Assembly (NCBI GenBank): GCA_002840095.1 | Contig: PGZL01000008.1 | Location: 389,790 to 453,789, forward strand | Length of the DNA: 64,000 nucleotides | Source of the DNA: Gammaproteobacteria bacterium HGW-Gammaproteobacteria-1 | GTDB lineage: Bacteria; Pseudomonadota; Gammaproteobacteria; Thiohalomonadales; Thiohalomonadaceae | Direction: 5' to 3' | In this document: positions 1,480 to 16,680 of the stretch, one piece after another | How positions within the stretch are numbered: the stretch's first letter is position 1 | Layout: every line of letters begins with the position of its first letter | Translations under genes and position numbers: made by a program | The notes under the pieces: generated by a model | Seen by the model: the letters and a program-made list of their open reading frames with translations, nothing else | The model's database searches: none | What the model was told of the DNA's origin: nothing

Positions 1480-2046
1480 TTACTTCACGCCCTTGTCGCG
1501 CAAAAAGCCGCTGTAGCCCTGATCGGTGCCGTTGATGTGGTTGAGCAGCCACTTCTTGAGGAACTGCACCGCCTCTTCGATGGTGTCCTGCGGCTTGTCG
1601 TTGTAGCGCCGCATCAGTTCGTCGACCTTGGCGATCATCGCGGTGTGTTCGCCCTGGTGGGCGGTGAACGCGGGATAACCGTGGGTCTGCATCAATTCCT
1701 CTTCGCGCCGGAAGTGGGTCTTGGTGTAGTCCACCAGCGCATCGAAGGCTTCGCGCTCGTACTGCGGGTCGGTCTGGTAGTGGGCCGCGGTCTGCAACTG
1801 GTTGATGAGGTTGAGCAGCTTCTTGTGATCGTTGTCGATGGCCTCGATGCCGACGCTGTAGGAGTCCTGCCATTCCAGGAAGCGGTTGGCGACGATCCGC
1901 TTGTGGATGTAGGGCACCAGCGCCAGCACGATGATCAGGCCCCATGACACCGGGTTAAAAACGCTGACCATGAAGCCGAGCAGGATCACGGTGATGACGA
2001 TCAACAGCAGCAGCGCCAGGCCGAACATGCTCCATTGCTTGTTCAT
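1480..2046 (-). CDS. Membrane-anchored bacteriohemerythrin-domain protein
   Basis: Two N-terminal hydrophobic helices, then a hemerythrin/HHE pattern (WQDSYSVGIEAIDNDHKKL, HFRREEELM, HQGEHTAM, WLLNHINGTD). ATG at 2046 sits behind a G-rich SD; the track ORF start at 2070 is the alternative. Confidence 0.8.
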   Translation of the reverse strand: MNKQWSMFGLALLLLIVITVILLGFMVSVFNPVSWGLIIVLALVPYIHKRIVANRFLEWQDSYSVGIEAIDNDHKKLLNLINQLQTAAHYQTDPQYEREAFDALVDYTKTHFRREEELMQTHGYPAFTAHQGEHTAMIAKVDELMRRYNDKPQDTIEEAVQFLKKWLLNHINGTDQGYSGFLRDKGVK

Positions 2047-2157
2047 GTGTACCCCCGGATGAGTTGGCAATAGATGACTCGGCAGGGTATCCCTGCCGCA
2101 CTGCCGGTCATTGTGGGTAAGGGCGGGCCGGGGTTACTTGATCTGGGTCAAGGCAGC

Positions 2158-2586
2158 TCAGGCGCCGCATCCGGATGGCGTTCGCAGGGTCGCCGGGCCG
2201 GCGCCGACGATGGCGGAGTGATGCCGGGCTGCGGCATTCAGGGCCTGGTCCAGCACCATGCCCGCTTCGACGCCGTCCATGATCAGGCGCTGCAGGATGG
2301 CGCCGAGCATGGCGATGTTGTCGCGCATGTGTTCCTTGATGGGTTGCAGTATGTGCACGTCCAGCGGCGGGTCTTCCGGCAGGGTCCGTGCGAAGGCGGC
2401 GAAGTCGCGGCCGGTGGCCAGCCAGTAGCACATGTCGTAAATCAAATCGAAGGATTGCTGGAAGGCGGCCGGGTCGTCCGTGCCGAGGTTGGCGCGCAAT
2501 TCTTCCGCCAAATCGTTGCGGAACTGTTCCAGGCCGTAGCCGATCTCGCCTTTGACGATGTGTTCCGGGCTGAAGTCCCATTGCAT
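2158..2586 (-). CDS. Hypothetical 142-aa cytoplasmic protein (no family recognised)
   Basis: ATG at 2586 is preceded by AGGAGA. The gene starts 18 nt downstream of the stop of the ferredoxin gene on the same strand. Codon usage is consistent with its neighbours. Confidence 0.55.
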   Translation of the reverse strand: MQWDFSPEHIVKGEIGYGLEQFRNDLAEELRANLGTDDPAAFQQSFDLIYDMCYWLATGRDFAAFARTLPEDPPLDVHILQPIKEHMRDNIAMLGAILQRLIMDGVEAGMVLDQALNAAARHHSAIVGAGPATLRTPSGCGA

Positions 2587-2603
2587 GATTCTTCTCCTGT
2601 GGG

Positions 2604-3695
2604 TTAGCCGAAGATGGCGCTGAAGCTGTCGTTGTCGTCATCGCACACGGGGCAGCCGTCGCCGGCGTCCGTGGTGACATACAGGCGCCCGCAGCGTTCG
2701 CAACGCCGCCGCGGCACCACGTGCAGGTTGCGTACCGCCGCGGCGGCGGTGACGGTTTCCGCCAGGCGCAGGGCGCCGCGGTGGCAGGACTCCACGCACA
2801 CGCCGCAGCCCACGCAGCGCGGCGGGTTGAGACGCAGCACCCAGGCGGTGGCGGTCTCGCCAGCGACCAGGGCGCCGGTGGGACAGACCCGGCCGCAGGT
2901 TTCGCAGGCGGTGCAGGCGGCGGGATCAATCACCGGTACGCCGGCCGGCAGGGCGGGATGGGCGGGCAGCGCGGCGTCTTCGCCGGCGCCGTTGACGAGC
3001 AGGGCCTGCAGCAGTTCGCGCCGCGAAGGCAGGAAGGGCGCGGCGGCGCGTATGGCCCTGGCCGGTACCGGCGCCTGATCCTGAACCGGGTGTTGCAGCT
3101 GATCGATGCCGCGGCCGAACAGGCGGCGGAAGAACTGCCGTCGCTGCGGCTGTGCCTTTACCGCATTGGGGGCGGCATCGGCCAGCGTTACCTCGCCCCA
3201 GCGCACGCCGGGCGCTGCGGCGCGCAGCAGGGTCACGGCATCGAGCACCTGTGCCAGGGCCTCGGCGCCGGCGGTGCCGTGGGCGCAGTCGGCGCAGTGG
3301 TCGTGGCCAAGGAGTTCCACCTGGGTGCCGCGCGCCAGCAGGGCGGCGAAGGTGACCGGATCCAGCGCGCCCAGGCAGGGCGCGATGGCGGGGGCTTCAC
3401 GATCCGAGGGGGCGCAGGCGATGGTCAGCCGGTTGCCCGCGCGGGACAGTTCCAGCCAGTCGCGCCAGGGCAGGTTCTCCGCCTGCAAGGCGCCGGTGGG
3501 GCAGGCGCCGGCGCACAGGCCGCAGTTCCGGCAACGCTCCTGGCTCAGTTCGAAACCTTCTTCATCGAGCGCCAGCGCTTCGTGGGGACAGGCGGTGGCG
3601 CAGCTGTCGCATTCGCTGTAACGGAAGCGATAACGGGTGCAGCGCGCGGGGTGGGTGCGGGGATAGGCGCTGAGGTTGGCGGCAGGCGTGCTCAT
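2604..3695 (-). CDS. Cytoplasmic poly-ferredoxin (4Fe-4S dicluster domains x2) with C-terminal Zn-ribbon-like knuckles
   Basis: Motifs CDSCATACP, CRNCGLCAGACP, CTACETCGRVCP and CVGCGVCVESCH, plus CERCGR...CPVCDDD. No signal peptide. Its start overlaps the upstream stop (ATGA at 3692-3695). Confidence 0.8.
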   Translation of the reverse strand: MSTPAANLSAYPRTHPARCTRYRFRYSECDSCATACPHEALALDEEGFELSQERCRNCGLCAGACPTGALQAENLPWRDWLELSRAGNRLTIACAPSDREAPAIAPCLGALDPVTFAALLARGTQVELLGHDHCADCAHGTAGAEALAQVLDAVTLLRAAAPGVRWGEVTLADAAPNAVKAQPQRRQFFRRLFGRGIDQLQHPVQDQAPVPARAIRAAAPFLPSRRELLQALLVNGAGEDAALPAHPALPAGVPVIDPAACTACETCGRVCPTGALVAGETATAWVLRLNPPRCVGCGVCVESCHRGALRLAETVTAAAAVRNLHVVPRRRCERCGRLYVTTDAGDGCPVCDDDNDSFSAIFG

Positions 3696-4129
3696 TGGGC
3701 CTCGAAGACGTGCGCCGGTTCACCGGGCTGGCAGGTGTCGCGGGGGATGACGAAGCCGTAGGAGGAGGTGTCCTCCACCGGGGCGCTGAGATAGGCATCG
3801 CGTGCCGCTTCATAGGCGGCAAGCCCGCCGGCGGCGACATAGGCGCGGACCCCGTCATCGCGCTTTTCCAGCGTCTCGGCGATGGCCAGCGCCTGATCGT
3901 CGCGGTCGCCCACGATCAGCACCACGCCGCGACGGGCGCGGGTGGCGGCACCGTAGACGACGGCGCCGGCGAGGGGAGCGGTTCGCTGCTTTTCGCTGCG
4001 TGCGTCCAGCAGTTGCAGGCTCAGGCCGTAGTCGTTCATCAATTTGATCATGACCTCGTTGTCGGCCAGTTCGGCGGCAGGCAGTGCGGTGGATAACAGG
4101 AGCAATGCGATGACTGGAAGCGATCTCAT
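3692..4129 (-). CDS. Secreted rhodanese-homology-domain protein lacking the catalytic Cys
   Basis: Internal ATG at 4129 of the 488-aa track ORF gives a signal peptide (MRSLPVIALLLLSTALPAAE). A rhodanese-like core follows (LLDARSE...VVLIVGDRDDQALAIAETL...AAGGLAAYEAA), but the active-site loop reads VGDRDDQ instead of CxxxxxR. ATGA overlaps occur at both ends. Confidence 0.6.
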   Translation of the reverse strand: MRSLPVIALLLLSTALPAAELADNEVMIKLMNDYGLSLQLLDARSEKQRTAPLAGAVVYGAATRARRGVVLIVGDRDDQALAIAETLEKRDDGVRAYVAAGGLAAYEAARDAYLSAPVEDTSSYGFVIPRDTCQPGEPAHVFEAQ

Positions 4130-4830
4130 CCGTCTTGTGTCGTAGTGGGGGCGACTGTGGGAACGGCCGCCGCGAGCCGTTCCAGTTCGACCGCCGTGCA
4201 GGTGTCGGCGTTCACGACGAGTTGCCGCGCGCCGCCGTCGCGTATCCATTCGGCCGGGTCGCCGGCTGCATCGGCGAATGTCAGCCACAGGCGGTCGCCG
4301 ATTTCCTCGCTCAGTTCGGCACAGATACCGAGATCGTCCTCTGTCGCCTGGTGCAGGGAAAGCAGCAACTGTTCCACGCCCAGCCGCGCCATTTCGCGCG
4401 CGAACCAGGCGGCGTCGGTGCCGGTGCCCGTACCGTCGGCCAGCAGCAGTTCCCAGCGCGGTACCGGGCAGGTGGGCATGATGAAGCTGAAGTCGGCGTT
4501 GGATTCGCGATTGATCGACCAGCTTACTTCCATGCGCCGGGCCGGCAGCCACAGGCCGACGCGCTGGGCGCCGAAGCGGGCGATGGCCTCCTGCACCAGG
4601 GCGGTATCGAGCAGGGCCGTCTCGCCCAGCAGAACGCGGCGGGCGCCGGCGGCGAGCAGCGTGTCGGCCCGCGCCAGGGTGCCGCGCTCCATGACGACAT
4701 GGGCGCCGGCGCAGACGGGCGCCCCGGTTTCGTCGTCGAACATGAACAGCGGGTGGTCGGGCGGCGCGAAGCCGGGCGCCGACCAGGCGCCGACGGTGAG
4801 GGTGGCGGCAGAGGGCAGCGCGGCGTTCAT
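4126..4830 (-). CDS. HisA/HisF-like TIM-barrel family protein
   Basis: ATG at 4830. The segment RADTLLAAGARRVLLGETALLDTALVQEAIARFGAQRVGLWL resembles the HisA/HisF beta-alpha barrel signature. The gene is translationally coupled on both sides. Confidence 0.5.
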   Translation of the reverse strand: MNAALPSAATLTVGAWSAPGFAPPDHPLFMFDDETGAPVCAGAHVVMERGTLARADTLLAAGARRVLLGETALLDTALVQEAIARFGAQRVGLWLPARRMEVSWSINRESNADFSFIMPTCPVPRWELLLADGTGTGTDAAWFAREMARLGVEQLLLSLHQATEDDLGICAELSEEIGDRLWLTFADAAGDPAEWIRDGGARQLVVNADTCTAVELERLAAAVPTVAPTTTQDG

Positions 4831-5213
4831 ACGGCGATCCGGTTGGTCTGGAAGGACAGGGGCGGCGCGCCCAGCCACAGCGTCTGCGACTTGCCGTCGA
4901 GCCGGTCGCGCAGGGCGCGCACGCCCTCCAGGATCGGGCCGATGCGCAGGCCGGCATAGGCCGGAGCGAATTCGGGCAGGGTGCGCAGGGCATCGTCCAC
5001 GAACAGTTCGGCGCTCTCGTTATTGCGTTCGGCGGCGAAGTGAAAGGCCAGGGCGGCGAAGGCCATGGCCTGGAGGAAGCGCGCCAGCACGTCGCGTTCG
5101 CCGCTGCTGCTTTCCTGGATGATGCGTGACCAGCGTTCGTTGATCCAGTCGTGCACAACGTACATGTCGCCGCTGTTCCAGTAGTCGGCCAGTTCGTCCC
5201 ATAGCAGGAGCAT
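4827..5213 (-). CDS. DUF309-like small helical protein
   Basis: ATG at 5213 behind GAGGA. The stretch WNSGDMYVVHDWINERW...RDVLARFLQAMAFAALAFHFAAE resembles the DUF309 'HExxEexW ... lqGliq.A' pattern. Confidence 0.45.
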   Translation of the reverse strand: MLLLWDELADYWNSGDMYVVHDWINERWSRIIQESSSGERDVLARFLQAMAFAALAFHFAAERNNESAELFVDDALRTLPEFAPAYAGLRIGPILEGVRALRDRLDGKSQTLWLGAPPLSFQTNRIAV

Positions 5214-5233
5214 GGTGGTGTCCTCGCTCGGTA

Positions 5234-5983
5234 TCAGGCGCCGCAGCGCATGGGTTCGTCGGCGCCGGCCAGGGGCGGCAACTCCATCCTGCCCTGGTCC
5301 TCGTCGGTGACGTCCAGGCCCAGCAGCTCCAGTTCGAACGCGGCGAAGGCGTCGAGCAGCATGGCCGTCTCGCGGTAGAAAGAGTGGCTGGCTGCGCGCT
5401 CCACCAGGGCGGCATAGCCGCGCACCCAACGGCCCAGGTGCTGGGCCCAGAAACGCTTGACGCTCTTCTCCAGCCGGCGCTGCTCCTGGTTGTCGCCGCG
5501 CTGCATGGCGATGACGATGCGGTCCATCAGCGCGGCGATGAATTGCAGCTCCACGCCCAGCTGATCGTCAAATACCTGGAAACGGCCCGCACCGACGGAA
5601 AAACCCTCCTTGGCGTAGAACTCGCGTGCGGCAAAGCAAGGGTCTTGCTGAAAACCGCCTTTCAGGCGTACCGATTCCACCGGCGGAAAGCCGCCCGAGG
5701 AGGCGAACAGTACGGTGTATTCGCAGGCCAGGGTTTCCTGCAGTTCGTCCGGCGTGGGATCGATGAAATCGTTGTCGAAGGTGACGCCCAGTTCGGCGAG
5801 CGCCTCCAGTGATTCGGGGGTACGCAGGGCCGCCAGATAGTCGCGGCCGGGTTCTTCGATAAAGGCACCGGCGAGCAGCCGGTAATAGTGGGCGCGCGCG
5901 GCATATTCCTCCGCGGTACAGGCGGCGGGGGCAACGGCCTCCTGGCGCACGATCTCCAGGGGAATGGTGAACAGGTCCGACAT
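5234..5983 (-). CDS. TorD/DmsD-family redox-enzyme maturation chaperone
   Basis: ATG at 5983 behind GGAGG. TorD-like pattern present (YRLLAGAFIEEP..., EYTVLFASSGGFPPVESV, DDQLGVELQFIAALM, FWAQHLGRWV, FYRETAMLLDAF). It lies downstream of the molybdoenzyme gene. Confidence 0.75.
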   Translation of the reverse strand: MSDLFTIPLEIVRQEAVAPAACTAEEYAARAHYYRLLAGAFIEEPGRDYLAALRTPESLEALAELGVTFDNDFIDPTPDELQETLACEYTVLFASSGGFPPVESVRLKGGFQQDPCFAAREFYAKEGFSVGAGRFQVFDDQLGVELQFIAALMDRIVIAMQRGDNQEQRRLEKSVKRFWAQHLGRWVRGYAALVERAASHSFYRETAMLLDAFAAFELELLGLDVTDEDQGRMELPPLAGADEPMRCGA

Positions 5984-6007
5984 GGTAACCCTCCGATGAT
6001 CCAGGTG

Positions 6008-6212
6008 TAGAGAGAGATACAAGTTACAAGCCATGTAGGGTGGATAAGCGGAGCGCATCCACCGGGAGAGAGATAAAAGATACAAGTTACAAGATGCAAG
6101 TGAATGAACCCGCTGCGCGCGTGCTGTTTGAAATGCGAACAATCATGCGCGCAGCGCAGTCATCCTTCTGTATCTCTCCTCTTTTCTCTTTCCTCTTTGC
6201 TCTTGTATCTGC
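6008..6212. repeat. Composite palindromic element (TACAAG-type arms + conserved core) with an inserted REP
   Basis: Arms at 6011-6030/6064-6100 and 6166-6210. Core CGCTGCGCGC...GTTTGAA...GCGCAGCG at 6101-6165. REP GTAGGGTGGATAAGCGGAGCGCATCCACC at 6035-6063. Confidence 0.8.
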
Positions 6213-6256
6213 GTTCGGCGAAGACGCCCGCCCCGGAGGGCGGGCGCTTCGGTCCA

Positions 6257-8890
6257 TCAATGGCCACCAGTCGCCTTGTGCTTGACGCTGTCCGGGCCGG
6301 CCCAGGAGGCCATTTCCGGATGCATCTTGCGGTGCATGTCGCCGACGTAGGTGTAGCGCATGCCTTCCTTGTACCACTGCACGTGCTTGTTCCAGTCGGC
6401 CACCATGTCGCCGTACTTGTCGCCGGGCTGGGCCTTGCTCACCTTCACCACCGTGTCGTACCAGCCCTGCGAGCCGCCGATGGGATCGGCGACGGCGGGG
6501 ATGATGTGGTTGGGGTGCACGCCCTTGTCGTCCCACCACACGTTCTTCAGGTCCGGGTCGTCCGCCGCGCCGTACTGGCCGGCCGCTTCCTTCAGCTTGA
6601 GCTGGGCTAGGCGGCCGTAGCCCCAGTGGCCGTGGGCGGTGGAAACGGCGATGACCTTGGGATGGATGCCCTCGGTCACCAGCGCCTTGGTGACGATGTG
6701 GCCGACGCCGCTTTCGATGCGGATCAGGTCACCGGTCTTGATGCCCAGCTTCGCCGCCGTCTCGGTACCGAGCCAGGCGGGGTTGGCGTGGGATATCTCG
6801 GCCAGCCACTTCACCGCAGCGGTGCGTGATTGCTTGTGCACGTTGAGCTTGAAGGTGGTGAGGATCATCTCATCGTCCTTCATGTTCTCGTGCCAGGGCA
6901 TGCGCTTGAAGGTGGGCATGGGATTGAAGCCGTACTCGGCCCACTGATCGACGCGCACGTTGATCAGGCGGTCATGGGTGGGGAAGCCCACGTAGTTCCT
7001 GCCCTTGCGCTGTACGCCGATCACCTTGCCGTTCTTGTGTATGGCGCCCTTGCCGTCCACCATGGCGCCGGCCATGTCGGCCGCCGACAGCTCCTTCCGG
7101 TACAGCCCGTATTCCGCCGCAATCTCGCGCCCGGACTTGTCGGAGATCTTGCCGGTCCGGGGATTGAGCTTGCCGTAGATGGGCCACACGCCGTGCTTCT
7201 TGAGGAAGTCGAGACCGCCGGCTTCCTTCAGGCCCGGAATATTCTCGAACTGCTTGCGCAGATAGTCCTCCGCGCTCTTGAATCCCCAGAACTTCTTCAT
7301 GCCGCGCGAGCCGTCCGGGTCCAGCTTGTGGATCAGCTCCTGCAGGTAGACGCGGGTTTCCTTGCCCTCGCCCAGCGGTTTGATCACCGGCTGGCGGATG
7401 GCCAGCCAGGGCCACAGCGAGCTGGGCATGGATTCCGGCTCCCAGCGTTCCAGGTAAGGCACATCCGGCAGGATGATGTCGGCCAGCTGCGCCTCTTCGC
7501 CCATGAACGGCGACAGGCAGACGTAGAACGGGATCAGCTCCTCGTTGCGGAACAGCTCGCCCCATACCGCGTCGGCGCCCGGGTTGGTGTAGACCGGATT
7601 GTCCTGGTAGGAGAAGTAGACCTTGATCTTCTGCTTGCCCTCGGTGATCCAGAACGGCACCAGGTGACTGACCTTGTGCCCGGCCAGCGGATACTCGTCG
7701 GGATGGGCCAGGTAGGACGGGGTCGCCGGCTTGGGCGGCTGTGGCTGCGGCTGGTCGTAGCCCATGCCGCGCGGCAGGCAGTAGCCGCCGCGCTTCTCGA
7801 TGTTGCCGGTCATGATCGGCAGCATCATGCAGGCCTTTTCGTTGTAGGAGCCGTACATGTGCTTGGCCGGGCCGCGGTAGGTGTAGGTGGTGGCCGGCTT
7901 GGTGGTGGCGAACTCGCGCGCGATGCGCTCGATGGTTTCCACCGGCACGCCCGACAGCTTGGCGGCCCACTCCGGAGTGAACTGCTTGTAGTGGTCCTTC
8001 AGTTCCTGCACCGAGACGTTGGTCCAGTTCTCGATGAAGTCCGAGTCCTGCAGGTTCTCGCGCAGGATCACGTGGCCGAGAGCCAGCGCCACCGCACCGT
8101 CGGTGCCCGGATACACCGGAATCCACTCGTCGGAGAAGCCGGCGGTGTTGGACAGGCGCACGTCGAAGGTGACGATCTTCATGTTGCTGTCGACACGGCC
8201 CTCGGTGACGCGCTGCGAGAAGGGATTATGGAAGTAGGCCGCCTCCAGCACGTTGGAACCGAAGTTCAGCACGTACTTGGTGTTGGCGAAGTCCGGCATT
8301 TCTATGTCCGGGCCCCAGGTGGGTTCCATACCGATCTTTTTCGACGACTCGCACACCGAGGTGTGGTTGAGGATGGTGGCCGAGCCGAGGGTGTGCATGA
8401 AGCGCTCCAACACGCCGCCGGTACGGTTGCGGCCCCACTTCAGCATGATCTCGTTGGGATGGCCGTTCGTCAGCACGTCGTCCAGGCGCGCGGCGATTTC
8501 GTTGTAGGCCTCGTCCCAGGAGATGCGCTTCCACTTGCCCTCGCCGCGCTTGCCCACGCGCTTGAGCGGATAGAGGATGCGATCCGGATCGTAGCTGTAC
8601 CACATGCCGGCATTGCCCTTGGCGCACAGGCGGCCGCGGGTGGATACGTGCTCCGGGTTGCCCTCCAGCTTGACGACGCGGCCGTTCTCGACGAAGGCGA
8701 GCGCGCCGTCCTGGATGTTGCAGACGTGGCAGTTGGTGGGGATGGACTTGCGCTCGATAAGGCTGACCGGATCGATGTCGCGGCCGCCGAGATCGGCTTC
8801 CATGGCGCGCAGCATCGACGGCGCCGCCACGGCAGCGGCGGTGGTGCCGGCGCTGGCCTTCAAAAAGGTACGGCGAGTGAGTTTCAACAT
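6257..8890 (-). CDS. Tat-exported molybdopterin (bis-PGD) oxidoreductase catalytic subunit, Psr/Phs/Ttr/Arr-Arx clade; substrate unknown
   Basis: Twin-arginine leader MLKLTRRTFLKASAG...AAPSMLRA. N-terminal FeS motif CHVCNIQD-x27-C. KRVGKRGEGKWKRISWDEA motif. Putative Mo-ligand region NHTSVCESSKK. 877 aa. Confidence 0.9.
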   Translation of the reverse strand: MLKLTRRTFLKASAGTTAAAVAAPSMLRAMEADLGGRDIDPVSLIERKSIPTNCHVCNIQDGALAFVENGRVVKLEGNPEHVSTRGRLCAKGNAGMWYSYDPDRILYPLKRVGKRGEGKWKRISWDEAYNEIAARLDDVLTNGHPNEIMLKWGRNRTGGVLERFMHTLGSATILNHTSVCESSKKIGMEPTWGPDIEMPDFANTKYVLNFGSNVLEAAYFHNPFSQRVTEGRVDSNMKIVTFDVRLSNTAGFSDEWIPVYPGTDGAVALALGHVILRENLQDSDFIENWTNVSVQELKDHYKQFTPEWAAKLSGVPVETIERIAREFATTKPATTYTYRGPAKHMYGSYNEKACMMLPIMTGNIEKRGGYCLPRGMGYDQPQPQPPKPATPSYLAHPDEYPLAGHKVSHLVPFWITEGKQKIKVYFSYQDNPVYTNPGADAVWGELFRNEELIPFYVCLSPFMGEEAQLADIILPDVPYLERWEPESMPSSLWPWLAIRQPVIKPLGEGKETRVYLQELIHKLDPDGSRGMKKFWGFKSAEDYLRKQFENIPGLKEAGGLDFLKKHGVWPIYGKLNPRTGKISDKSGREIAAEYGLYRKELSAADMAGAMVDGKGAIHKNGKVIGVQRKGRNYVGFPTHDRLINVRVDQWAEYGFNPMPTFKRMPWHENMKDDEMILTTFKLNVHKQSRTAAVKWLAEISHANPAWLGTETAAKLGIKTGDLIRIESGVGHIVTKALVTEGIHPKVIAVSTAHGHWGYGRLAQLKLKEAAGQYGAADDPDLKNVWWDDKGVHPNHIIPAVADPIGGSQGWYDTVVKVSKAQPGDKYGDMVADWNKHVQWYKEGMRYTYVGDMHRKMHPEMASWAGPDSVKHKATGGH

Positions 8891-8921
8891 GTTTGTGCCT
8901 CCAGATTCATAGCGCCGAGCA

Positions 8922-9779: not shown

Positions 9780-9792
9780 GGTGGCCTCCGCC

Positions 9793-10503: not shown

Positions 10504-10597
10504 TGTTCGCTCCTCAGTGGTGGAACCCAAGGGTGGCGTTGCCGCTCCCTCTTCGCATTCGCAGCAGCGCTGCCCAGACAGCCTGCGTCGCTACCGT

Positions 10598-10613
10598 TGC
10601 AACTCGCGGGCCA
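10598..10613 (-). promoter_or_regulatory. Near-consensus sigma54 -24/-12 promoter for the molybdoenzyme operon
   Basis: The minus strand reads TGGCCC-GCGAG-TTGCA against the consensus TGGCAC-N5-TTGCW, with exact GG/GC spacing. It lies about 95 nt upstream of the ATG at 10503. A sigma54 activator is encoded divergently. Confidence 0.65.
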
Positions 10614-10653
10614 AGGCGGGAGGCGGGCAAAATCACCTTGCAGGCAGTCGGGC

Positions 10654-10669
10654 GTTACCGCCCTGTAAC
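10654..10669. promoter_or_regulatory. Palindrome GTTAC-N6-GTAAC, candidate activator (bEBP) binding site 1
   Basis: GTTACCGCCCTGTAAC, centred about 50 bp upstream of the -24 element. Confidence 0.5.
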
Positions 10670-10686
10670 CTCCGGCGGCGAGCGGT

Positions 10687-10702
10687 GTTACCGTCGTGTA
10701 AC
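10687..10702. promoter_or_regulatory. Palindrome GTTAC-N6-GTAAC, candidate activator binding site 2
   Basis: GTTACCGTCGTGTAAC, centred 33 bp (three helical turns) from site 1. Confidence 0.5.
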
Positions 10703-10846
10703 GTGTCCGCTGCGGATGCAGGAAGGGGGCGCGTCAGGCGGGTGAAACCGGGTATGGTATGGAACCGGGTGTCCCCGCGTGCCGGCTTTCCCCGGCGGCG
10801 TGCGATGTCCGGATACCCTGTCAGCGTTGGTGTGGAGGAAACGACC

Positions 10847-11725
10847 GTGGTGAATCCGGGAGTCCGTCGATGGGCGGCAGCAGCCCTGCTGGTGTTTTCG
10901 GCTTGGATGCCCTTGGCGTGGTCCGTGCAGGGGGAGCCGATAAGGATTGGTCTCACCCCCGTGTTTCTCGATGACCAGACCTCCTTTGTCGAGGACTGGC
11001 GTGCTTATCTGGAACGGCGGCTGGGGCGGCCGGTGGCGTTCTCACAACGGAGCAGTTATCGCGACATCATGGATTTGCTGTTACAGGGCAAGCTCGATTT
11101 CGCCTGGGTCTGCGGTTACCCCTACGCGCGTTACGAGTCGGAGCTGCGGCTGGCTGCGGTCCCCGTCTACCAGGGGCAGCCGCTTTATCGCGCCTACCTC
11201 ATCGTGCCGTCCGGCGATACCGCCACCCGCTCGCTGGCCGATCTGCGCAACAAGCTGTTCGCCTATTCCGACGCCGATTCCAATTCCGGCTACCTGGTCG
11301 TGCAATACCAGCTGCTGGGCATGGAGACGCGCTCCGGCGAGTTCTTCCGGCGCACCTTCTTCACCGGCGCCCACCGCAAGGTGGTGGAGGCGGTGGCGGC
11401 GGGGGTGGCCGACGGCGGCACGGTGGACGGTTACGTGTGGGACGTGCTGAACGAGTTTCACCCCGAGCTGACCTCGCGCACCCGCGTGGTGTCCCGGTCT
11501 GAAACCTATGGCTTTCCGCCCCTGGTGGCCCGCCGCGGCGTCGACGACAGGATCATGCGGGAGGTGCAGGGGGCGCTGTTGTCCATGGACCGGGATGCGG
11601 AGGGCGTGGCCCTGCTGAAGCGCCTCAGCCTGGACGGCTTTACCCAAGGCAGCTCCAGTCTGTTCGACGGCATACGCCGCATGATGGCGGCGGTACGAGG
11701 TTCCAGCGGTGCTGCACAACCTTAG
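10847..11725 (+). CDS. Periplasmic PhnD-like (phosphonate/phosphite/arsenite-type) substrate-binding protein, AioX/ArxX-like sensor partner
   Basis: GTG at 10847 lies 8 nt after GGAGG and gives the signal peptide VVNPGVRRWAAAALLVFSAWMPLAWS; the alternative ATG is at 10805. PhnD-family pattern present (IRIGLTPVF..., LLQGKLDFAWVCGYPY, SNSGYLV, GTVDGYVWD). No ABC permease or ATPase is nearby. Confidence 0.8.
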   Translation: MVNPGVRRWAAAALLVFSAWMPLAWSVQGEPIRIGLTPVFLDDQTSFVEDWRAYLERRLGRPVAFSQRSSYRDIMDLLLQGKLDFAWVCGYPYARYESELRLAAVPVYQGQPLYRAYLIVPSGDTATRSLADLRNKLFAYSDADSNSGYLVVQYQLLGMETRSGEFFRRTFFTGAHRKVVEAVAAGVADGGTVDGYVWDVLNEFHPELTSRTRVVSRSETYGFPPLVARRGVDDRIMREVQGALLSMDRDAEGVALLKRLSLDGFTQGSSSLFDGIRRMMAAVRGSSGAAQP

Positions 11726-13157
11726 TTTTCGCTACAAGGTTCCCGTTCGCTCCAGCATCCTGATCCTGGTGACGGCGGTGTTCGTCACCGTGTCGCTGAT
11801 GTACCGGGCCTATGACGACATGCGACGCGATCTGCTGTTCAATGCCGAGGGCATGAGCCGGGTGCTGGTGCGTACCCTGGTGCCGGCGATACTGCACGAC
11901 GACGTGTGGCAGGTGTACGAAGTGATCCAGTCCGCCTACCCGGCGGCGGGTGCCGATACCACGCTGGCCAGCGAACTGATCATGGTGCTGGATGCCGCCG
12001 GCAACACCTACGTCGCCAACCAGCCGAAGCGTTTCCCCATGTTGTCGGATCCGGCGCTGGGTGGTCCGGAGTTCGCCCTGCTCAAGCGTGCGGCCCTGCA
12101 GCACCAGGAGGAGACGCCCGCGGTGGTGGACCTGGATCTGGCGGAGTATCTCTACCTGGTGATGCCGATAGTGTCCGATCGGGTGCGGCTCGGCAGCCTG
12201 GTGCTGGGCTTCCCGCGTTCGCTGTTCCTGCCGCGCTTTCTCACCATCGCCAAGCGCGCGGCATGGATGACGCTGCTGAGTCTGGCGGTGCTGCTGCCCA
12301 TCACCTGGTATTGGGCCGGACGCATGGCCCGGCCCATGATCCAGCTGGCCGACTGCATGGCCCGCCTGGGCACCACGACGCCGGAGCACATGCGCTGTGA
12401 TTTGTACGAGTCGCAGGACGAAATCGGCCGCCTCGGCCTGAGCTTCCGCCGCATGCTGGCGGAGTTGCAGGAAAAGCACGCGCTGGAGCGGCAGATCGTG
12501 GTGGCCGACCGCCTCGGTGCCATCGGCCGCCTGACCTCGTCCATCGCCCACGAGATCAACAATCCGCTGGGCGGCATGCTCAATGCCATCGACACCTTCA
12601 AGCGCCACGGCAATTGCGAAGACGAGCGCACCCATCGCACCATGTCGCTGCTGGAGCGCGGCCTGCTGCAAATCCGCGACACCGTGGCGGCGCTGCTGGT
12701 GGAGGCCAAGGCCGGCAGCCACACCCTGAAGCCGGTGGACATCGAGGACATCCACACCCTGGTGGCGCCTGAAGCGGCGAAGAAATCGGCGCGCATCGAA
12801 TGGCACAATGAGCTGCGCATGCCCATCGACCTGCCGGCCACGCCGGTGCGGCAGACGCTGATCAACCTGCTGCTCAACGCCGTACATGCGGTGGAGGAGA
12901 ACGGCCTGGTGCGGTGCCGGGTCTGGGCGCGCGACGGGCGCCTGCACATGCAGATCATCAACGACGGCCGCCACATCCCGGCCGACAAGATCGAACACCT
13001 GTTCGAACCCTTTTCGCCCCTGTCGGAAACCGGTCACGGCCTGGGGCTGTGGGTGTGTTACCAAATCGTGCAGCAGCTGGGCGGTGATATCCAGGTGCAC
13101 AGCGAGCCGGGGTCCACCGTGTTCACGGTGGTCCTGCGCTACGGAGAAAACGAATGA
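11709..13157 (+). CDS. Sensor histidine kinase (2 TM, periplasmic loop, HAMP, HisKA, HATPase), AioS/ArxS-like
   Basis: H-box SSIAHEINNPLGG. N, G1 and G2 boxes present (LLLNAVHAV, IINDGRHIP, GHGLGLWV). Overlaps the binding-protein gene end and the regulator start (ATGA at 13154-13157). Confidence 0.85.
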   Translation: MLHNLSFRYKVPVRSSILILVTAVFVTVSLMYRAYDDMRRDLLFNAEGMSRVLVRTLVPAILHDDVWQVYEVIQSAYPAAGADTTLASELIMVLDAAGNTYVANQPKRFPMLSDPALGGPEFALLKRAALQHQEETPAVVDLDLAEYLYLVMPIVSDRVRLGSLVLGFPRSLFLPRFLTIAKRAAWMTLLSLAVLLPITWYWAGRMARPMIQLADCMARLGTTTPEHMRCDLYESQDEIGRLGLSFRRMLAELQEKHALERQIVVADRLGAIGRLTSSIAHEINNPLGGMLNAIDTFKRHGNCEDERTHRTMSLLERGLLQIRDTVAALLVEAKAGSHTLKPVDIEDIHTLVAPEAAKKSARIEWHNELRMPIDLPATPVRQTLINLLLNAVHAVEENGLVRCRVWARDGRLHMQIINDGRHIPADKIEHLFEPFSPLSETGHGLGLWVCYQIVQQLGGDIQVHSEPGSTVFTVVLRYGENE

Positions 13158-14518
13158 GTGGTCGTGCAGTACGACTTTGTCTGGTGGAAGACGATGCCAT
13201 CATGGGTGAATCGCTGTGCGATCGCTTCGAGCTGGAAGGCTTCGCCATCGACTGGTTCCGCAACGCGCCGGAGGCCTTCGAGGCCATCGGCCGCCTGCCC
13301 TACGGCCTGGTGATCAGCGACATCCGCATGCCCGGCATGAGCGGCGAGCAGCTGTTCGAACAGGTGCTGGAGCGCTATGCGCAGCGGCCGCCGTTTCTGT
13401 TCATCACCGGCTACGGCGCCATCGACAAGGCGGTAAAGCTGCTCAAGCTGGGCGCCGCCGACTACATCACCAAGCCCTTCGATCTGGACCAGCTGGTGCA
13501 GAAGGTGCGCGAGCTGACCGCTGCCGCTGCCGGCGCGGCACCGGACGAGGCGGCGCCGGCGCTCGGCATCTGCCCCACCATGCGCCATATCGAGGAAACC
13601 CTGCCGCACCTGGCGCAGCGCGCCAACACCATCCTGCTGACCGGCGAATCGGGCGTGGGCAAGGAGCACGTGGCGCGCCTGATCCATCACTACGGCAGCG
13701 GCGACGCCGCGCCCTTCGTGGCGGTGAACTGCGGCGCCCTCACCGAGACCCTGCTGGAAGCCGAACTGTTCGGCTATGAGAAGGGCGCCTTCACCGGCGC
13801 CCTGCGCACCAAGAAGGGCGTGTTCGAACTGGCCCACGGCGGCACCCTGCTGCTGGACGAAATCGGCGAGATGCCGTTGCCCATGCAGGTGCGACTGCTG
13901 CGCGCCATCCAGGAACGCACCGTGGTGCGCGTCGGCGGCGAGCAGCCCATACACGTGGAACTGCGGCTGATCTGCGCCACCAACCGCGATCTCAAATGCA
14001 TGGCGGAACAGGGTCATTTCCGCGAGGACCTCTACTACCGCGTCAACGTCATCCACCTGCGCATCCCGCCCCTGCGCGAGCGCAAGGAGGACGTGCTGTG
14101 GTTCGCCCGCCGTTTTCTGCAGGAGTTCACCGCCGCCCATCCCGGCGAGGGCAAGGTGCTGCACCCGGACGCCGAGCGCGCCATGCTGGGCTATCCCTGG
14201 CCGGGCAATATCCGCGAACTGCGCCATACCCTGGAACGTGCCTGCATCCTCACCCGCGGCGAAATCCTCATGCCGCAGGATCTGTTCGAGGGCAGCATCG
14301 ACGAGCCGGCACCGCCGCCGCCGCCGGGCCAGCCGGCCTGCGACGACCTCGGCCAGTACATGCGCGCCTGCGAGCGTGCCTACATCCTGCGCGCGCTGGA
14401 TTCCCATCAATGGAAGATCGGCGATACTGCCGGCTATCTCGGCATCAGCCGCAAGAACCTGTGGGAGAAGATGAAGAAATACGCCATCCAGGCGGATGCG
14501 GCGGAGGAAGACGAATAA
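13154..14518 (+). CDS. Sigma54-dependent response regulator (REC + AAA+ bEBP + Fis-type HTH), AioR/ArxR/NtrC family
   Basis: REC domain with the acceptor Asp in LVISDIRMPGMSG. Walker A GESGVGKE. GAFTGA loop (EKGAFTGA). C-terminal HTH (TAGYLGISRKNLWEKMKKY). Confidence 0.9.
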   Translation: MSGRAVRLCLVEDDAIMGESLCDRFELEGFAIDWFRNAPEAFEAIGRLPYGLVISDIRMPGMSGEQLFEQVLERYAQRPPFLFITGYGAIDKAVKLLKLGAADYITKPFDLDQLVQKVRELTAAAAGAAPDEAAPALGICPTMRHIEETLPHLAQRANTILLTGESGVGKEHVARLIHHYGSGDAAPFVAVNCGALTETLLEAELFGYEKGAFTGALRTKKGVFELAHGGTLLLDEIGEMPLPMQVRLLRAIQERTVVRVGGEQPIHVELRLICATNRDLKCMAEQGHFREDLYYRVNVIHLRIPPLRERKEDVLWFARRFLQEFTAAHPGEGKVLHPDAERAMLGYPWPGNIRELRHTLERACILTRGEILMPQDLFEGSIDEPAPPPPPGQPACDDLGQYMRACERAYILRALDSHQWKIGDTAGYLGISRKNLWEKMKKYAIQADAAEEDE

Positions 14519-14534
14519 ACCTAAAAAGTTTACA

Positions 14535-14673
14535 GTCCGCAAATGAACACAAATAGACGCAAATAATTCACGGTGTTACACAGATGCGTCCTGTTCACCC
14601 GATGGGGGAGCGGGCGACTGGCTAACGGACGGCTCCTTTTTTGATTTGCGTCCATTTGCGCTTATTGGCGGAC
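14535..14673. repeat. Long hairpin, CGCAAAT-type arms
   Basis: Left arm GTCCGCAAATGAACACAAATAGACGCAAAT and right arm ATTTGCGTCCATTTGCGCTTATTGGCGGAC. The loop includes a short GGAGC/GCTCC stem plus T6, a possible terminator of the regulator operon. Confidence 0.75.
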
Positions 14674-14747
14674 GCATTTTGGATGAATCTGTCGGGGCGG
14701 CATCGTTCTTGCTTCCAATTTTGTAGGCAACAACCGCGAGAACAGCC

Positions 14748-15734
14748 ATGCAAACCCTGACCGACTCCTTTGGCCGCCGCATTACCTACCTGCGCCTGTC
14801 GCTGACCGACCATTGCAACCTGCGCTGCCGCTACTGCATGCCGGAAGATGCTCACGGCAGCGGTCGCGCCCGGCGGTTGAGCCTGGAGGAAACCGCTCGG
14901 CTGGTGGGGCTGTTCGCGCGCATGGGGGTGGAGCGGTTCCGGCTGACCGGCGGTGAACCGCTGCTGCGCAAGGACCTGGTCCCGCTGGCCGCCGCTCTTA
15001 CATCCTTGCCGGGCGTGCGTGATCTTTCCCTCTCCACCAACGCCCTGTTGCTGGAACAGAGCGCAGCAGCGCTGGCCGCCGCCGGCGTGGGGCGGCTCAA
15101 CATCTCCCTCGACTCCCTGCAACCGGAACGATTCGCCGACATCACCGGCGGCGGCGACCTGGCCGCCGTGCTGCGCGGCATCGAGGCGGCGCGGGCTGCC
15201 GGCATGACGCCCATCAAGCTCAACATGGTGGCCCTGAACGGCATCAACGACGACGAAATCACCGCCATGGCCGAGTTCGCCCAGGCACGCGGCCTGGAGC
15301 TGCGCTACATTGAAACCATGCCGGTGGGCGGCCAGGGCGAGTGGAGCATGCGCCACCATCTGCCCGCCGAGCAGATCATGGTACGGCTGAAGGAACATTA
15401 CGGCACCGACCTGCTGCCGCAGCACGAGGGTGCGGGCGGGCCGGCGCGCATGTACCGCATCGGCGCGCACGGCCCCCGTATCGGGGTCATTTCCGCCGTA
15501 TCGCGCCACTTCTGCGCCAGCTGCAACCGCGTGCGGCTCACCGCCGCGGGTGATCTGGTGCTCTGTCTCGGCAATGAAAACAGCGTGTCGCTGCGTGAGC
15601 CCATGCGCGCCGGCATGGATGACGAGGCACTCTGTGACCTGATCCGCGCCGCCATCCTGCGCAAGCCGGAACGGCACGACTTCAACGCGCCGCAGGTGGC
15701 GCCGCTGCGGCCGATGTACGCCCTGGGCGGTTGA
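14748..15734 (+). CDS. moaA: GTP 3',8-cyclase (molybdenum cofactor biosynthesis protein A)
   Basis: Radical-SAM motif CNLRCRYCMP. C-terminal cluster CASCNRVRLTAAGDLVLCL. Ends in the GG tail typical of MoaA. Confidence 0.9.
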   Translation: MQTLTDSFGRRITYLRLSLTDHCNLRCRYCMPEDAHGSGRARRLSLEETARLVGLFARMGVERFRLTGGEPLLRKDLVPLAAALTSLPGVRDLSLSTNALLLEQSAAALAAAGVGRLNISLDSLQPERFADITGGGDLAAVLRGIEAARAAGMTPIKLNMVALNGINDDEITAMAEFAQARGLELRYIETMPVGGQGEWSMRHHLPAEQIMVRLKEHYGTDLLPQHEGAGGPARMYRIGAHGPRIGVISAVSRHFCASCNRVRLTAAGDLVLCLGNENSVSLREPMRAGMDDEALCDLIRAAILRKPERHDFNAPQVAPLRPMYALGG

Positions 15735-15735
15735 A

Positions 15736-15896
15736 GGGAGATACAAGAGAAAGGATACAAGATGCAGGTGGATGAGTGCGCTGCGCGCACGGTGGTTTGA
15801 ATTTCAAACAGTACGAGCGCAGCGAGTTCTTTCCCTTGTATCTTGTCTCTTGTATCTTTTCTCTCTGCTCTTGTGCGCTACGCTTATCCACCCTGC
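15736..15896. repeat. Palindromic element (TACAAG arms + conserved core) plus half-REP
   Basis: Arms at 15736-15768 and 15833-15874. Core GAGTGCGCTGCGCGCACGGTGGTTTGAATTTCAAAC...GAGCGCAGCGAG. It starts 2 nt after the moaA stop. Confidence 0.8.
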
Positions 15897-15933
15897 GTGA
15901 ATAGTTGTGGAAACTTTTTGAGGAGTACCGAGC

Positions 15934-16365
15934 ATGCCCACCCCCCAACACCTCGGCGAACTGACGCCGCGTCAGGCCTGGCAGATGCTGCAGGACGATC
16001 CGCGCACCGTCCTGGTCGACATCCGCTCCGCCATGGAATTTCTTTTTGTCGGCCATCCCAGCGGCGCGGTGCACATCGCCTGGATCGACGAGCCCGACTG
16101 GACCGTCAACCCGCATTTCGTCACCGAAGTGCGCAAGCTGCTGCTGGGCGGCGTGGTGTGCGACAACCAGGGGGGCTGCGCGCCGGTGATCCTAAGCTGC
16201 CGCAGCGGCAAGCGCTCCAAGGAAGCCGGCAAGGCGCTGCTCGATGCGGGCTTCCGCAACGTGTACCACATCGACAGCGGCTTCGAGGGCGAGCTGGACG
16301 ATCACCATCACCGCAGCACCGTCAACGGCTGGCGCTTCGACGGCCTGCCGTGGGAGCAGTGCTGA
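15934..16365 (+). CDS. Single-domain rhodanese-like sulfurtransferase
   Basis: GAGGAG SD. Rhodanese fold (VLVDIRSAMEF..GHPSGAVHI) with active-site loop CRSGKRS. Confidence 0.8.
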   Translation: MPTPQHLGELTPRQAWQMLQDDPRTVLVDIRSAMEFLFVGHPSGAVHIAWIDEPDWTVNPHFVTEVRKLLLGGVVCDNQGGCAPVILSCRSGKRSKEAGKALLDAGFRNVYHIDSGFEGELDDHHHRSTVNGWRFDGLPWEQC

Positions 16366-16379: not shown

Positions 16380-16492
16380 TTACAAGATACAAGTGACAAG
16401 ATACAAGCGATGGAGTGCGCTGCGCGCAAGGTTTGATTCAGAACTACATGAGCGTGGCGAGCCCATTTACTTGCATCTCGTCTCTTTGTCAG
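16380..16492. repeat. Palindromic element (TACAAG arms + conserved core)
   Basis: GTTACAAGATACAAGTGACAAGATACAAG, then core GAGTGCGCTGCGCGCAAGGTTTGA..., then CTTGCATCTCGTCTCTTTGTCAG. Confidence 0.75.
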
Positions 16493-16589: not shown

Positions 16590-16623
16590 ATAAAAAGCCG
16601 GTATGAACTCGCGTTCATACCGG
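16590..16623 (-). terminator. Second intrinsic terminator (minus strand), about 30 nt after the first
   Basis: The minus strand reads CCGGUAUGAAC-gcga-GUUCAUACCGG followed by CUUUUUAUU. Confidence 0.6.
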
Positions 16624-16649
16624 TAATGTCCCACGGAGGGGGGCAGACG

Positions 16650-16680
16650 AAAAAAGCGGCCCGGCGACCTTGCCGGACCG
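16650..16680 (-). terminator. Intrinsic terminator (minus strand)
   Basis: The minus strand reads CGGUCCGGC-aagguc-GCCGGGCCG followed by CUUUUUU. No annotated minus-strand gene lies upstream of it. Confidence 0.6.

Follow-up and report, generated by a model that had tools for sequence, protein, structure and literature searches.

The window analysed here is a 64-kb stretch (64,000 nucleotides) of contig PGZL01000008.1 from a metagenome-assembled genome (MAG), 'Gammaproteobacteria bacterium HGW-Gammaproteobacteria-1'. It harbors a locus for an enzyme with a molybdenum bis(pyranopterin guanine dinucleotide) cofactor (Mo-bisPGD). An operon of nine genes (B-C-A-D-E-F-G-H-I) encodes an iron-sulfur (FeS) subunit B, a membrane anchor C, a catalytic subunit A of 877 amino acids (aa), a maturation chaperone D and the further proteins E to I. 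Transcribed divergently are the genes for X (a PhnD-like protein of the periplasm that serves as binding protein), S (a histidine kinase) and R (a sigma54-dependent response regulator), and the twelve genes form a conserved module. The operon probably accounts for one more, so far overlooked, enzyme in the redox cycling of arsenic by groundwater bacteria. X, S and R are true members of the AioXSR/ArxXSR family of arsenite-sensing systems, the promoter of the operon has the architecture of AioR-controlled promoters, and A carries a Gly-Arg motif of arsenic-metabolising enzymes on a lineage of its own. Induction by arsenite is strongly indicated; substrate and oxidative direction are suggested. 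The resulting reading, an arsenite-induced, periplasm-facing, membrane-anchored Mo-bisPGD arsenite:quinone oxidoreductase of a distinct lineage, is given an even chance.

Arsenite-sensing regulators

In comparisons with PDB structures, X matched AioX at E 1e-63 and the arsenate binder ArrX at E 6e-37. It is 42-50% identical to AioX. All pocket residues (Y88, C106, Y131, S161, N162, S163, H192 and D210 in AioX numbering) are conserved, including C106, which bonds arsenite in AioX (Badilla et al., 2018). X also keeps the V56/F57 signalling loop of AioX, while ArrX and PhnD are without this loop. Pocket and loop are essentially invariant across 65 module-linked orthologues, with 54-68 of 68 aligned sequences agreeing per position. 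Identities to ArxXSR of the Sulfuricella plasmid pSCD amount to 53% (X), 46% (S) and 56% (R), and the three proteins are as close to this system as to their own orthologues in other modules. S and R are 28 and 43% identical to AioS and AioR, respectively.

A separate clade of module-linked X, which would suggest a different ligand, was considered and rejected, as arx- and aio-linked X nest among the module-linked sequences in the X tree. The tree agrees with the published observation that the phylogeny of XSR tracks the host and not the enzyme. Among ten oxyanions, only arsenite was bound by AioX and ArxX, with dissociation constants of 177 nM and 311 nM, respectively; antimonite, arsenate, tetrathionate and thiosulfate were not bound (PMC5908839). 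From its conserved pocket, X is predicted to bind arsenite as well.

Promoter of the operon

Upstream of B, two palindromes precede a sigma54-type -24/-12 element (Table 1). The palindromes fit the documented and footprinted AioR consensus GTT-N10-AAC (PMC5335332). Four matches with at most one mismatch were present in the window, compared to 0.26 expected, and 62 of 79 related loci have the same motif ahead of B. Two tandem palindromes have been reported 100-200 nt upstream of aioB (Li et al., 2013), and at the true aioB promoter of Sinorhizobium M14 (pSinA), two such sites are likewise 33 bp apart. The arx intergenic regions of pSCD and of Sulfuricella sp. MAG STA_15 (locus L077) contain the same half-sites (GTNAC-N6-GTAAC). 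Of 77 loci, 55 have a -24/-12 box (TGGCAC-N5-TTGC, at least 9 of 11 positions), with a median position of -114 nt relative to the start of the B match. Where moaA lies between X and B, as in some loci, it has its own sigma54 element beyond the shared palindromes. A scan for sigma70 promoters between 1300 and 17000 yielded zero sites. Sensor type and promoter architecture argue strongly for an arsenite-, R- and RpoN-dependent transcription of the operon.

A second AioR-type palindrome pair (16909-16924 and 16952-16967, 43 bp apart) is located upstream of another -24/-12 box, TGGCCCATATCTTGC, on the minus strand (16819-16833), which was rated good. Two consecutive intrinsic terminators (16657-16680 and 16598-16623) follow about 130 nt beyond TGGCCCATATCTTGC, with no convincing open reading frame (ORF) between. 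From this layout, the unit may encode an arsenite-responsive small RNA of approximately 160-215 nt. The candidate region (16590-16810) had no homologue in the other loci, and its fold energy was not significant (z = -0.77). Alternatively, the palindromes may act on a weaker -24/-12 box (17081-17096) that faces rightward, before a DUF3579 gene (17203-17550, plus strand).

Phylogenetic position of the catalytic subunit

A scored far below the cut-offs of the curated NCBIfam models: 361 bits versus 694 for PhsA (NF012032), 184 versus 1600 for ArrA (NF041714), 128.9 versus 1750 for TtrA (NF011567), and 27.7 versus 359 for AioA (TIGR02693). As a control, the ArrA model gave 431 bits with a genuine ArxA, and the TtrA model 663 bits with a Ttr-like enzyme. 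A neighbour-joining tree was calculated from 704 columns with 100 bootstraps. Plasmid sequences served as references (Sulfuricella pSCD arx, E. coli ttrBCA and phsABC, Sinorhizobium pSinA aioBA, and relatives from Thermomicrobium and Natrinema), together with partial ArrA and PsrA sequences from PDB alignments. The family of A was monophyletic (bootstrap 100) and joined the Thermomicrobium and Natrinema relatives, members of the uncharacterised 'Unk' clade (bootstrap 100). Together they formed the sister group of ArrA/ArxA (bootstrap 84). A grouping with Ttr (TtrA/CitA) or with Psr/Phs occurred in 0 of 100 bootstraps each. Model scores and tree place A outside the named families compared, and the earlier proposal that A belongs to no named family holds.

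Identification as a known enzyme was rejected case by case. Besides score and bootstraps, TtrA is excluded by an invariant Gly-Arg where the TtrA of the E. coli plasmid has none, and PhsA/PsrA by the gene order B-C-A versus A-B-C. ArrA fails on its score and on KWGRNR in place of (R/K)GRY, the motif also carried by canonical betaproteobacterial ArrAB. ArxA differs in the motif (GRGWG versus GRNR), shares about 30-35% identity in patches, and has another gene order; A lies outside Arr/Arx in the tree. In addition to the low AioA score, the operon has no Rieske gene and aioBA is absent from the window. The antimonite oxidase NaoABC is set apart by its subunits, a NapA-like protein with a Rieske-type NaoC anchor versus the NrfD anchor. 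A Soe-like candidate of Thioalkalivibrio is cytoplasmic and without a signal for twin-arginine translocation (Tat). SrdA has been grouped with TtrA (PMC7331816), and the family of A does not join TtrA in the tree.

The enzyme had also been called undescribed, which stands only in part. The sequences of EbN1 (Azoarcus/Aromatoleum) and Dechloromonas RCB were reported as divergent basal branches of an unknown B-C-A clade, in a study that regards them as an enzyme type of their own (Duval et al., 2008, PMC2500031). These branches very likely represent the lineage of A, and the EbN1 locus fits the published description. The Thermomicrobium and Natrinema proteins belong to the anchor-less subgroup of 'Unk', which has no Tat signal (Duval et al., 2008, PMC2500031). 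The sister position to 'Unk', a clade of uncharacterised enzymes, assigns no activity to A.

An exhaustive HMMER search found metagenomic relatives with 42-51% identity to A. One of them (P0122) combines the order B-C-A-TorD-polyferredoxin with the GRNR motif. In four others that are among the nearest relatives outside the family (P0121, P0124, P0126 and P0128, 43-51% identical to A), the Mo-ligand Cys segment is missing and the FS0 motifs are degenerate. P0121 is followed by a gene for a NapC/NirT-type multihaem cytochrome. By their sequences, these four look like non-catalytic, ActB/QrcB-like derivatives of the A lineage.

Active-site and cluster motifs

The N-terminus of A, MLKLTRRTFLK, represents a twin-arginine leader. 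The Mo-ligand Cys is embedded in NHTSVCESSKK, a segment nearer to that of ArrA (SHSSVCAEAHK) than to that of PsrA (SVSLCTAPRE). A motif K[W/Y]GRNR in the family of A occupies the position of (R/K)GRY in Arr and of xGRGWG in Arx; the Sulfuricella ArxA has GRGWG and A has GRNR. According to a study from 2026, every enzyme known to metabolise arsenic (Arr, Arx and Ttr-like arsenate reductases) strictly conserves Gly-Arg, true Ttr does not have it, and its Arg (R165) binds arsenate (PMC12949373). In the alignment, Gly-Arg was present in the family of A, ArxA, ArrA, 'Unk' and an enzyme of Citrobacter arsenatis, and absent from TtrA, PhsA, PsrA and AioA. Arg165 and Lys198 of ArrA have equivalents in A.

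The FS0 motif of A, CHVCNIQDG (residues 54-61), follows the pattern C-x2-C-x3-D, with Asp replacing the third Cys. This Asp is invariant in the family of A, while every Arr, Arx, Ttr, Psr, Phs and 'Unk' reference has the third Cys. It recurs in some relatives of 45-51% identity (P0121, P0123 and P0127) and is therefore not a sequencing error. We know of no precedent for an Asp ligand of FS0 in the Mo-bisPGD enzyme family. The motif suggests that FS0 of A could be a [3Fe-4S] or an Asp-ligated cluster. By analogy to Aio, one may speculate that the Asp gives a cluster of higher potential.

Electron-transfer subunits and accessory proteins

B has 16 Cys in four cluster motifs and no Tat signal of its own. 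Its identity amounts to 55% with the B subunit of the arsenic-island enzyme from Citrobacter arsenatis, 51% with TtrB and 34% with ArxB. C contains no Cys, is haem-free, and is presumed to form the quinone site. H has four CxxCxxCxxxC motifs and extra CxxC pairs. It is a full-length homologue of the Sulfuricella ArxB2 (28.7% identity over 356 aa, E 4e-20), a protein described as specific to arx clusters.

The alignment of E has 20 invariant columns, and a PDB relative was not found. The profile of F matched HisF in the PDB (E 3.5e-8) over about 55 residues only, a part of the beta/alpha barrel. G has no Pfam match and is probably periplasmic, as its signal-like N-terminus suggests. An invariant motif FVIPxxTCxxG is located at its C-terminus. 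Most G orthologues contain a vicinal Cys pair (PPCC), which is missing from the copy in the window. An AlphaFold model of G from a shallow alignment reached a mean confidence (pLDDT) of 53, too poor to use.

Distribution and conservation of the module

A pattern scan, with one genome for each species, gave 121 matches. Eighty of these loci were fetched with flanks of up to 10 kb, and the proteins of the window were compared with them by tblastn. R-S-X is divergent from B-C-A-D-E-F-(G)-H-I almost everywhere. The core is complete in 37 of 42 loci with full 10-kb flanks, and X is divergent from B at a distance of at most 1.6 kb in 65 of 73 loci. The synteny search proposed with the original prediction thus revealed a module nearly unchanged across about 80 species genomes; the gene arrangement is not due to chance. 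Among orthologues, A is 73-81% identical, and all 77 sequences compared agree at 329 of the 877 positions; the regulators and accessory proteins share only 25-71% identity between loci.

The neighborhood is less constant. An ars-type gene was present within the fetched flanks of 23 of 81 loci, so that the arsenic context is only partly conserved, and moaA occurs within 10 kb of the module in 24 of 83 loci. Genes for hemerythrin (2/83 loci), rhodanese (1/83) and ArsM (0/83) are not conserved with the module. On plasmid pAZKH of Azoarcus sp. KH32C, the module follows arsR-arsC-arsD-arsA-acr3, and all RefSeq names are generic. In EbN1, it adjoins genes for an ArsP_1 permease and a thioredoxin-like protein. 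In Sulfuricella sp. MAG STA_15 (L077, 13274-18160), the module directly precedes a complete arx cluster with a second XSR set and arxB2. Two arsenite three-component systems with near-identical binding sites are adjacent there, and each enzyme has its own XSR. A Hydrogenophilales MAG (L030, 10494-16470) carries the module followed by moaA, aioBA and aioXS. Therefore, the module is not a simple replacement for Arx or Aio.

Hosts in the Rhodocyclales are Aromatoleum, Thauera, Azoarcus, Dechloromonas and Sulfuritalea, and in the Burkholderiales Rhodoferax, Polaromonas, Hydrogenophaga taeniospiralis and Noviherbaspirillum. Further hosts are Sulfuricella, Thiobacillus, Gallionella, Hydrogenophilus, Thiohalomonadaceae, Chromatiaceae and a few Alphaproteobacteria. 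Many carrier genomes originate from groundwater or mine-water metagenomes: Horonobe (HGW), Rifle (RIFOXY/RIFCSP), NC_groundwater and African mine water. In public annotations, A is named 'thiosulfate reductase', 'related to thiosulfate reductase and polysulfide reductase', or generically.

Proposed function and alternatives

Together, the findings narrow the substrates considered in the original prediction (As, Sb, Se or a thio-oxyanion) strongly towards arsenic, with arsenite as inducer. In the proposed mechanism, periplasmic X would bind As(III) via its conserved Cys pocket and activate the kinase S, which would phosphorylate R. R would bind the two GTT-N10-AAC palindromes and open the -24/-12 promoter of B-C-A-D-E-F-G-H-I. 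A, loaded with its cofactor with the help of D, would be exported by the Tat system together with B and dock on the anchor C. H probably also helps in cofactor loading or maturation. Electrons would pass from Mo to FS0, through the four clusters of B, and to a quinone in C.

An oxidative direction is suggested because the arsenite-type sensor is shared with both known oxidases and because the hosts are of the ubiquinone type. Ubiquinone is the main quinone of Alpha-, Beta- and Gammaproteobacteria, and its potential suits the oxidation of As(III) better than the reduction of As(V). The unusual FS0 cluster is a weaker pointer in the same direction. A more far-reaching proposal is put forward tentatively, at somewhat below an even chance: a third, phylogenetically independent arsenite:quinone oxidoreductase family beside AIO and ARX, present in more than 100 proteobacterial species from wastewater, sediment and groundwater, with an unprecedented Asp-ligated or 3Fe FS0 and four new accessory proteins, among them a Cys-bearing protein of the periplasm that may pass arsenite on to the enzyme.

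Several observations weigh against an arsenite oxidase. Arsenite also induces arsenate respiration in some bacteria, such as arr of Shewanella through ArsR, so that the direction does not follow from an arsenite sensor. Betaproteobacteria (Sulfuritalea) have a working canonical Arr, and hence ubiquinone-containing hosts do not exclude a reduction. The 'Unk' relatives have Gly-Arg as well, yet no known arsenic link, and A has neither (R/K)GRY of Arr nor xGRGWG of Arx. E, F, G and I are conserved yet without counterpart in aio, arx or arr. The co-location with a full arx cluster in L077, each with its own XSR, argues against simple redundancy with Arx. A literature search found no experiment or expression data for any member of the family.

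A respiratory arsenate reductase of a new lineage (quinol:arsenate), induced by arsenite from ArsC or from the enzyme itself, is unlikely, though the best placed of the alternatives. It would fit the grouping with Arr/Arx and the ArrA-like active-site segment (H-S/T-S-V-C...K, Gly-Arg); the same active site, however, is without (R/K)GRY, the motif used to recognise functional ArrA. The V-F loop in X is that of the arsenite binders AioX and ArxX, and the arsenate binder ArrX is without it. Ubiquinol is a poor donor for As(V), and arsenate respiration in these hosts is so far tied to canonical arrAB. Opposite directions of the two enzymes would explain the co-location with arx in L077. ArrD and ArrE, a TorD and a 4Fe-4S protein, accompany arrAB as D and H accompany A (PMC11283718). 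Ttr-like arsenate reductases ordered B-C-A exist (PMC12949373), and the arsenic island of the arsenate reducer Citrobacter arsenatis holds a B-C-A enzyme with Gly-Arg.

It is quite unlikely that the substrate is antimonite, thioarsenite/thioarsenate or methylarsenite, with arsenite or the species itself as inducer. The specificity motif GRNR, unlike those of Arr and Arx, would agree with such a substrate, and so would the separate XSR that the module keeps even beside arx; the pocket of X, however, is identical to that of AioX. The invariant Cys of G and its usual vicinal pair would suit the binding of thiophilic metalloids or the carriage of sulfur. Sulfur oxidisers are numerous among the hosts (Sulfuricella, Sulfuritalea, Thiobacillus, Hydrogenophilus thiooxidans, Thiohalomonadaceae), but many other hosts are no sulfur specialists (Aromatoleum, Thauera, Rhodoferax, Polaromonas). 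The neighboring arsM and rhodanese genes of the window would also fit, but they are not conserved with the module.

A reductase of thiosulfate, polysulfide or tetrathionate with an incidental arsenic link is very improbable: the best curated models (PhsA for A, TtrB for B), the public names of A and the ttrBCA gene order are outweighed by scores far under the family cut-offs, the absence of any grouping with Ttr or Psr/Phs in 100 bootstraps, the Gly-Arg that true Ttr does not have, arsenite three-component regulators instead of TtrSR in 65 of 73 loci, and the inability of ubiquinol to drive thiosulfate or polysulfide reduction.

Gene calls and neighborhood

Gene identities in the window were assigned by hidden Markov model (HMM) scans with Pfam and NCBIfam (Table 1). 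A is identical to a protein of the MAG named above. The genes named in the original prediction are all present, within a few codons of the predicted positions and with strong HMM support. The scans agree with the divergent arrangement of B/C/A/D and X/S/R, with moaA and the rhodanese gene after R, and with a real ars/arsM cluster. Of the ten-gene operon originally proposed, the nine genes B to I are conserved; the hemerythrin gene is not part of the conserved module.

The window has a GC content of 61-70%, and because of this high GC content long ORFs downstream of D are artefacts. On the basis of codon-position GC and of public gene calls for the identical contig, we discarded two mechanical ORFs (3692-5158, 488 aa, and 2108-2929, 273 aa) and resolved the region 2100-5200 into the five genes E, F, G, H and I. 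The start codon of D was borne out by alignment with the EbN1 orthologue. For X, the public gene call starts at 10805, and 10847, the position given originally, is an alternative start.

Table 1. Genes and regulatory elements of the locus and its surroundings in the window (position 1 is the first nucleotide of the window).
Feature	Position	Strand	Evidence or remark
Membrane-anchored bacteriohemerythrin, co-directional, outside the conserved module	1480-2046	-	HMM; 2/83 loci
I, conserved protein, 142 aa, last conserved operon gene	2158-2586	-	58/83 loci
H, polyferredoxin, 363 aa, ArxB2 homologue	2604-3695	-	HMM scan; comparison with Sulfuricella ArxB2
G, 145 aa, N-terminal signal-like segment	3692-4129	-	Public gene call; alignment
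F, conserved protein, 234 aa	4126-4830	-	Public gene call; distantly HisF/HisA-like
E, conserved cytoplasmic protein, 128 aa	4827-5213	-	Public gene call; weak DUF309 match
D, TorD/NarJ-type maturation chaperone, 249 aa	5234-5983	-	Pfam Nitrate_red_del E 1e-15
A, Mo-bisPGD catalytic subunit, 877 aa	6257-8890	-	Molybdopterin, Molydop_binding, Molybdop_Fe4S4, TAT_signal
C, NrfD/PsrC-type anchor, 285 aa	8922-9779	-	Pfam NrfD E 2e-33
B, periplasmic FeS subunit, 236 aa	9793-10503	-	Fer4_11 E 2e-24; best NCBIfam match TtrB
Sigma54 -24/-12 element TGGCCCGCGAGTTGCA	10598-10613	-	Precedes the start codon of B by about 95 nt
Upstream activating sequence, two 16-bp palindromes GTTAC-N6-GTAAC	10687-10702, 10654-10669	-	Starts 33 bp apart
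X, periplasmic AioX/ArxX-type arsenite-binding sensor protein	10805-11725	+	Phosphonate-bd E 3e-53
S, membrane histidine kinase	11709-13157	+	HAMP, HisKA, HATPase_c
R, sigma54-dependent response regulator	13154-14518	+	Response_reg (REC), Sigma54_activat (AAA+), HTH_8
moaA, GTP 3',8-cyclase, molybdenum cofactor synthesis	14748-15734	+	HMM
Single-domain rhodanese gene, not conserved with the module	15934-16365	+	HMM; 1/83 loci
ars resistance/methylation cluster, including a small ORF	19050-25346	-	HMM
arsM	19050-20294	-	
ArsP_1 permease	~21201-22100	-	
Metallo-beta-lactamase (MBL)-fold gene	22157-23080	-	
acr3	23093-24175	-	
arsC	24272-24715	-	
arsR	24957-25346	-	

The intergenic gap between A and D is unusually long, with 273 nt in the window and 12 nt in EbN1. 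It contains a 13-nt GC-rich palindrome, TGCGCTGCGCGCA (6146-6158), which occurs again just past the rhodanese gene (16416-16428) and may be an element similar to repetitive extragenic palindromes (REP). An Rfam scan of the whole window at gathering thresholds gave no match, and therefore no molybdenum cofactor (Moco) riboswitch.

The arsM ORF comprises 414 aa, of which the arsenite methyltransferase model covers only residues 152-409. Either the true start lies about 150 codons downstream, or the protein has an uncharacterised N-terminal extension. Directly downstream of arsM, a gene for a 443-aa protein (17716-19047) has a coding-type GC content at third codon positions and no Pfam or NCBIfam match. 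Homologues (47-49% identity) are encoded near acr3 and arsC beside the module in two other loci (L027 and L080). Past 25.4 kb, the window contains housekeeping genes (aroB, gltBD, hemE, cyaA and leuA).

Novelty and significance

A full-text literature search revealed no paper linking the enzyme to XSR, to arsenite or to any activity. As far as found, the regulatory link, the conserved twelve-gene module and the breadth of its distribution are undescribed. The enzyme lineage was noticed in 2008 (PMC2500031), and Ttr-like arsenate reductases with the order B-C-A are known (PMC12949373). New is an arsenite regulon of the Aio/Arx style driving a separate Mo-bisPGD lineage with a ttr-like gene order, GRNR, the FS0 Asp and four extra genes.

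Arsenic mobility in aquifers depends on the microbial conversion between As(III) and As(V), and field studies quantify nearly all of it via aioA, arxA and arrA. The module is present in at least 121 species-level genomes, and its carriers are the denitrifiers and lithotrophs to which nitrate-dependent arsenite oxidation is usually attributed. If it encodes an arsenic redox enzyme, current gene surveys undercount this capacity, as the module is invisible to the three markers, and the annotation 'thiosulfate reductase' misassigns it to sulfur cycling. A Mo-bisPGD branch acknowledged as unknown since 2008 would gain a function. The enzyme would also provide a natural comparison for direction and specificity in Arr/Arx-type sites (GRY, GRGWG and GRNR) and a new kind of FS0 cluster ligation. 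Cultured and genetically tractable carriers are Aromatoleum aromaticum EbN1, Azoarcus sp. KH32C, Thauera aminoaromatica S2 and Hydrogenophaga taeniospiralis.

Comparison with known systems

The mixed architecture described originally holds: a ttr-like order B-C-A is combined with arx-like regulators, a TorD gene, an ArxB2-like polyferredoxin gene and moaA. With Psr/Phs, the module shares the NrfD-type anchor, and among curated models and PDB structures, A matches PhsA and PsrA best, respectively. Unlike A, Psr/Phs have no Gly-Arg, PsrA has no His before the Cys ligand, and the gene order is A-B-C.

The Ttr system has the same B-C-A order, and its TtrB is 51% identical to B. However, A comprises 877 aa compared to about 1020 aa in TtrA, with 20-29% identity in patches. 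B has no Tat signal of its own, while TtrB has one, and the free X with the sigma54-dependent R differs from TtrS with the NarL-type TtrR. Ttr-like arsenate reductases with the order B-C-A are known from Anaeromyxobacter PSR-1 and Pyrobaculum and carry Gly-Arg (PMC12949373).

A different B-C-A Mo enzyme, divergent from arsRDABC, was found on the Citrobacter arsenatis LY-1 plasmid NZ_CP037863.1 (L089, 9869-15264). Its B is annotated 'DsrO', and the same B occurs on plasmids of Citrobacter freundii, Enterobacter ludwigii and Salmonella. Its A (1008 aa) groups with TtrA (bootstrap 100) and has Gly-Arg. By these features, it is probably a mis-annotated Ttr-like arsenate reductase.

ArrAB(C)(DE) resembles the module in its Mo-ligand segment and in a TorD gene and a 4Fe-4S protein alongside. 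It differs in gene order, in the arsenite-binding-type sensor of the module and in (R/K)GRY, which is missing from A. The sister group 'Unk' (31-33% identity over the full length) shares Gly-Arg and the segment H-T-N/S-V/I-C, and those of its loci that encode an anchor are ordered B-C-A. Unlike the module, the Thermomicrobium and Natrinema loci encode an FeS subunit of 510-590 aa, and no XSR and no NrfD anchor were present in the fetched stretch.

The AIO system shares the pocket of X, the REC/AAA+/HTH_8 composition of R, and palindromes 33 bp apart with a -24/-12 box. Its enzyme AioBA is unrelated, and the module has no Rieske subunit. The electron outlet is a quinone-reactive NrfD anchor versus a soluble cytochrome or azurin in AIO.

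The ARX systems compared were arxXSR/arxB2ABCD of Alkalilimnicola ehrlichii, Sulfuricella denitrificans pSCD and Azoarcus sp. CIB. In common with the module, XSR is divergent from a structural operon, which is preceded by a sigma54 promoter with GTNAC-N6-GTAAC sites. In both systems, the Mo subunit is Tat-exported and Cys-ligated and has Gly-Arg; its partners are an FeS subunit with four clusters, an anchor of the NrfD type, a TorD chaperone and a polyferredoxin of the ArxB2 type. An adjacent moaA (also on pSCD) and arsenic-island contexts are further common features. Unlike the ARX order B2-A-B-C-D, the module is arranged B-C-A-D...H and contains the extra conserved genes E, F, G and I. A differs from ArxA by GRNR, by the FS0 Asp and by its lower score on the ArrA model (184 versus 431 bits). 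The module thus has a counterpart for each arx component, on another catalytic scaffold and in another order.

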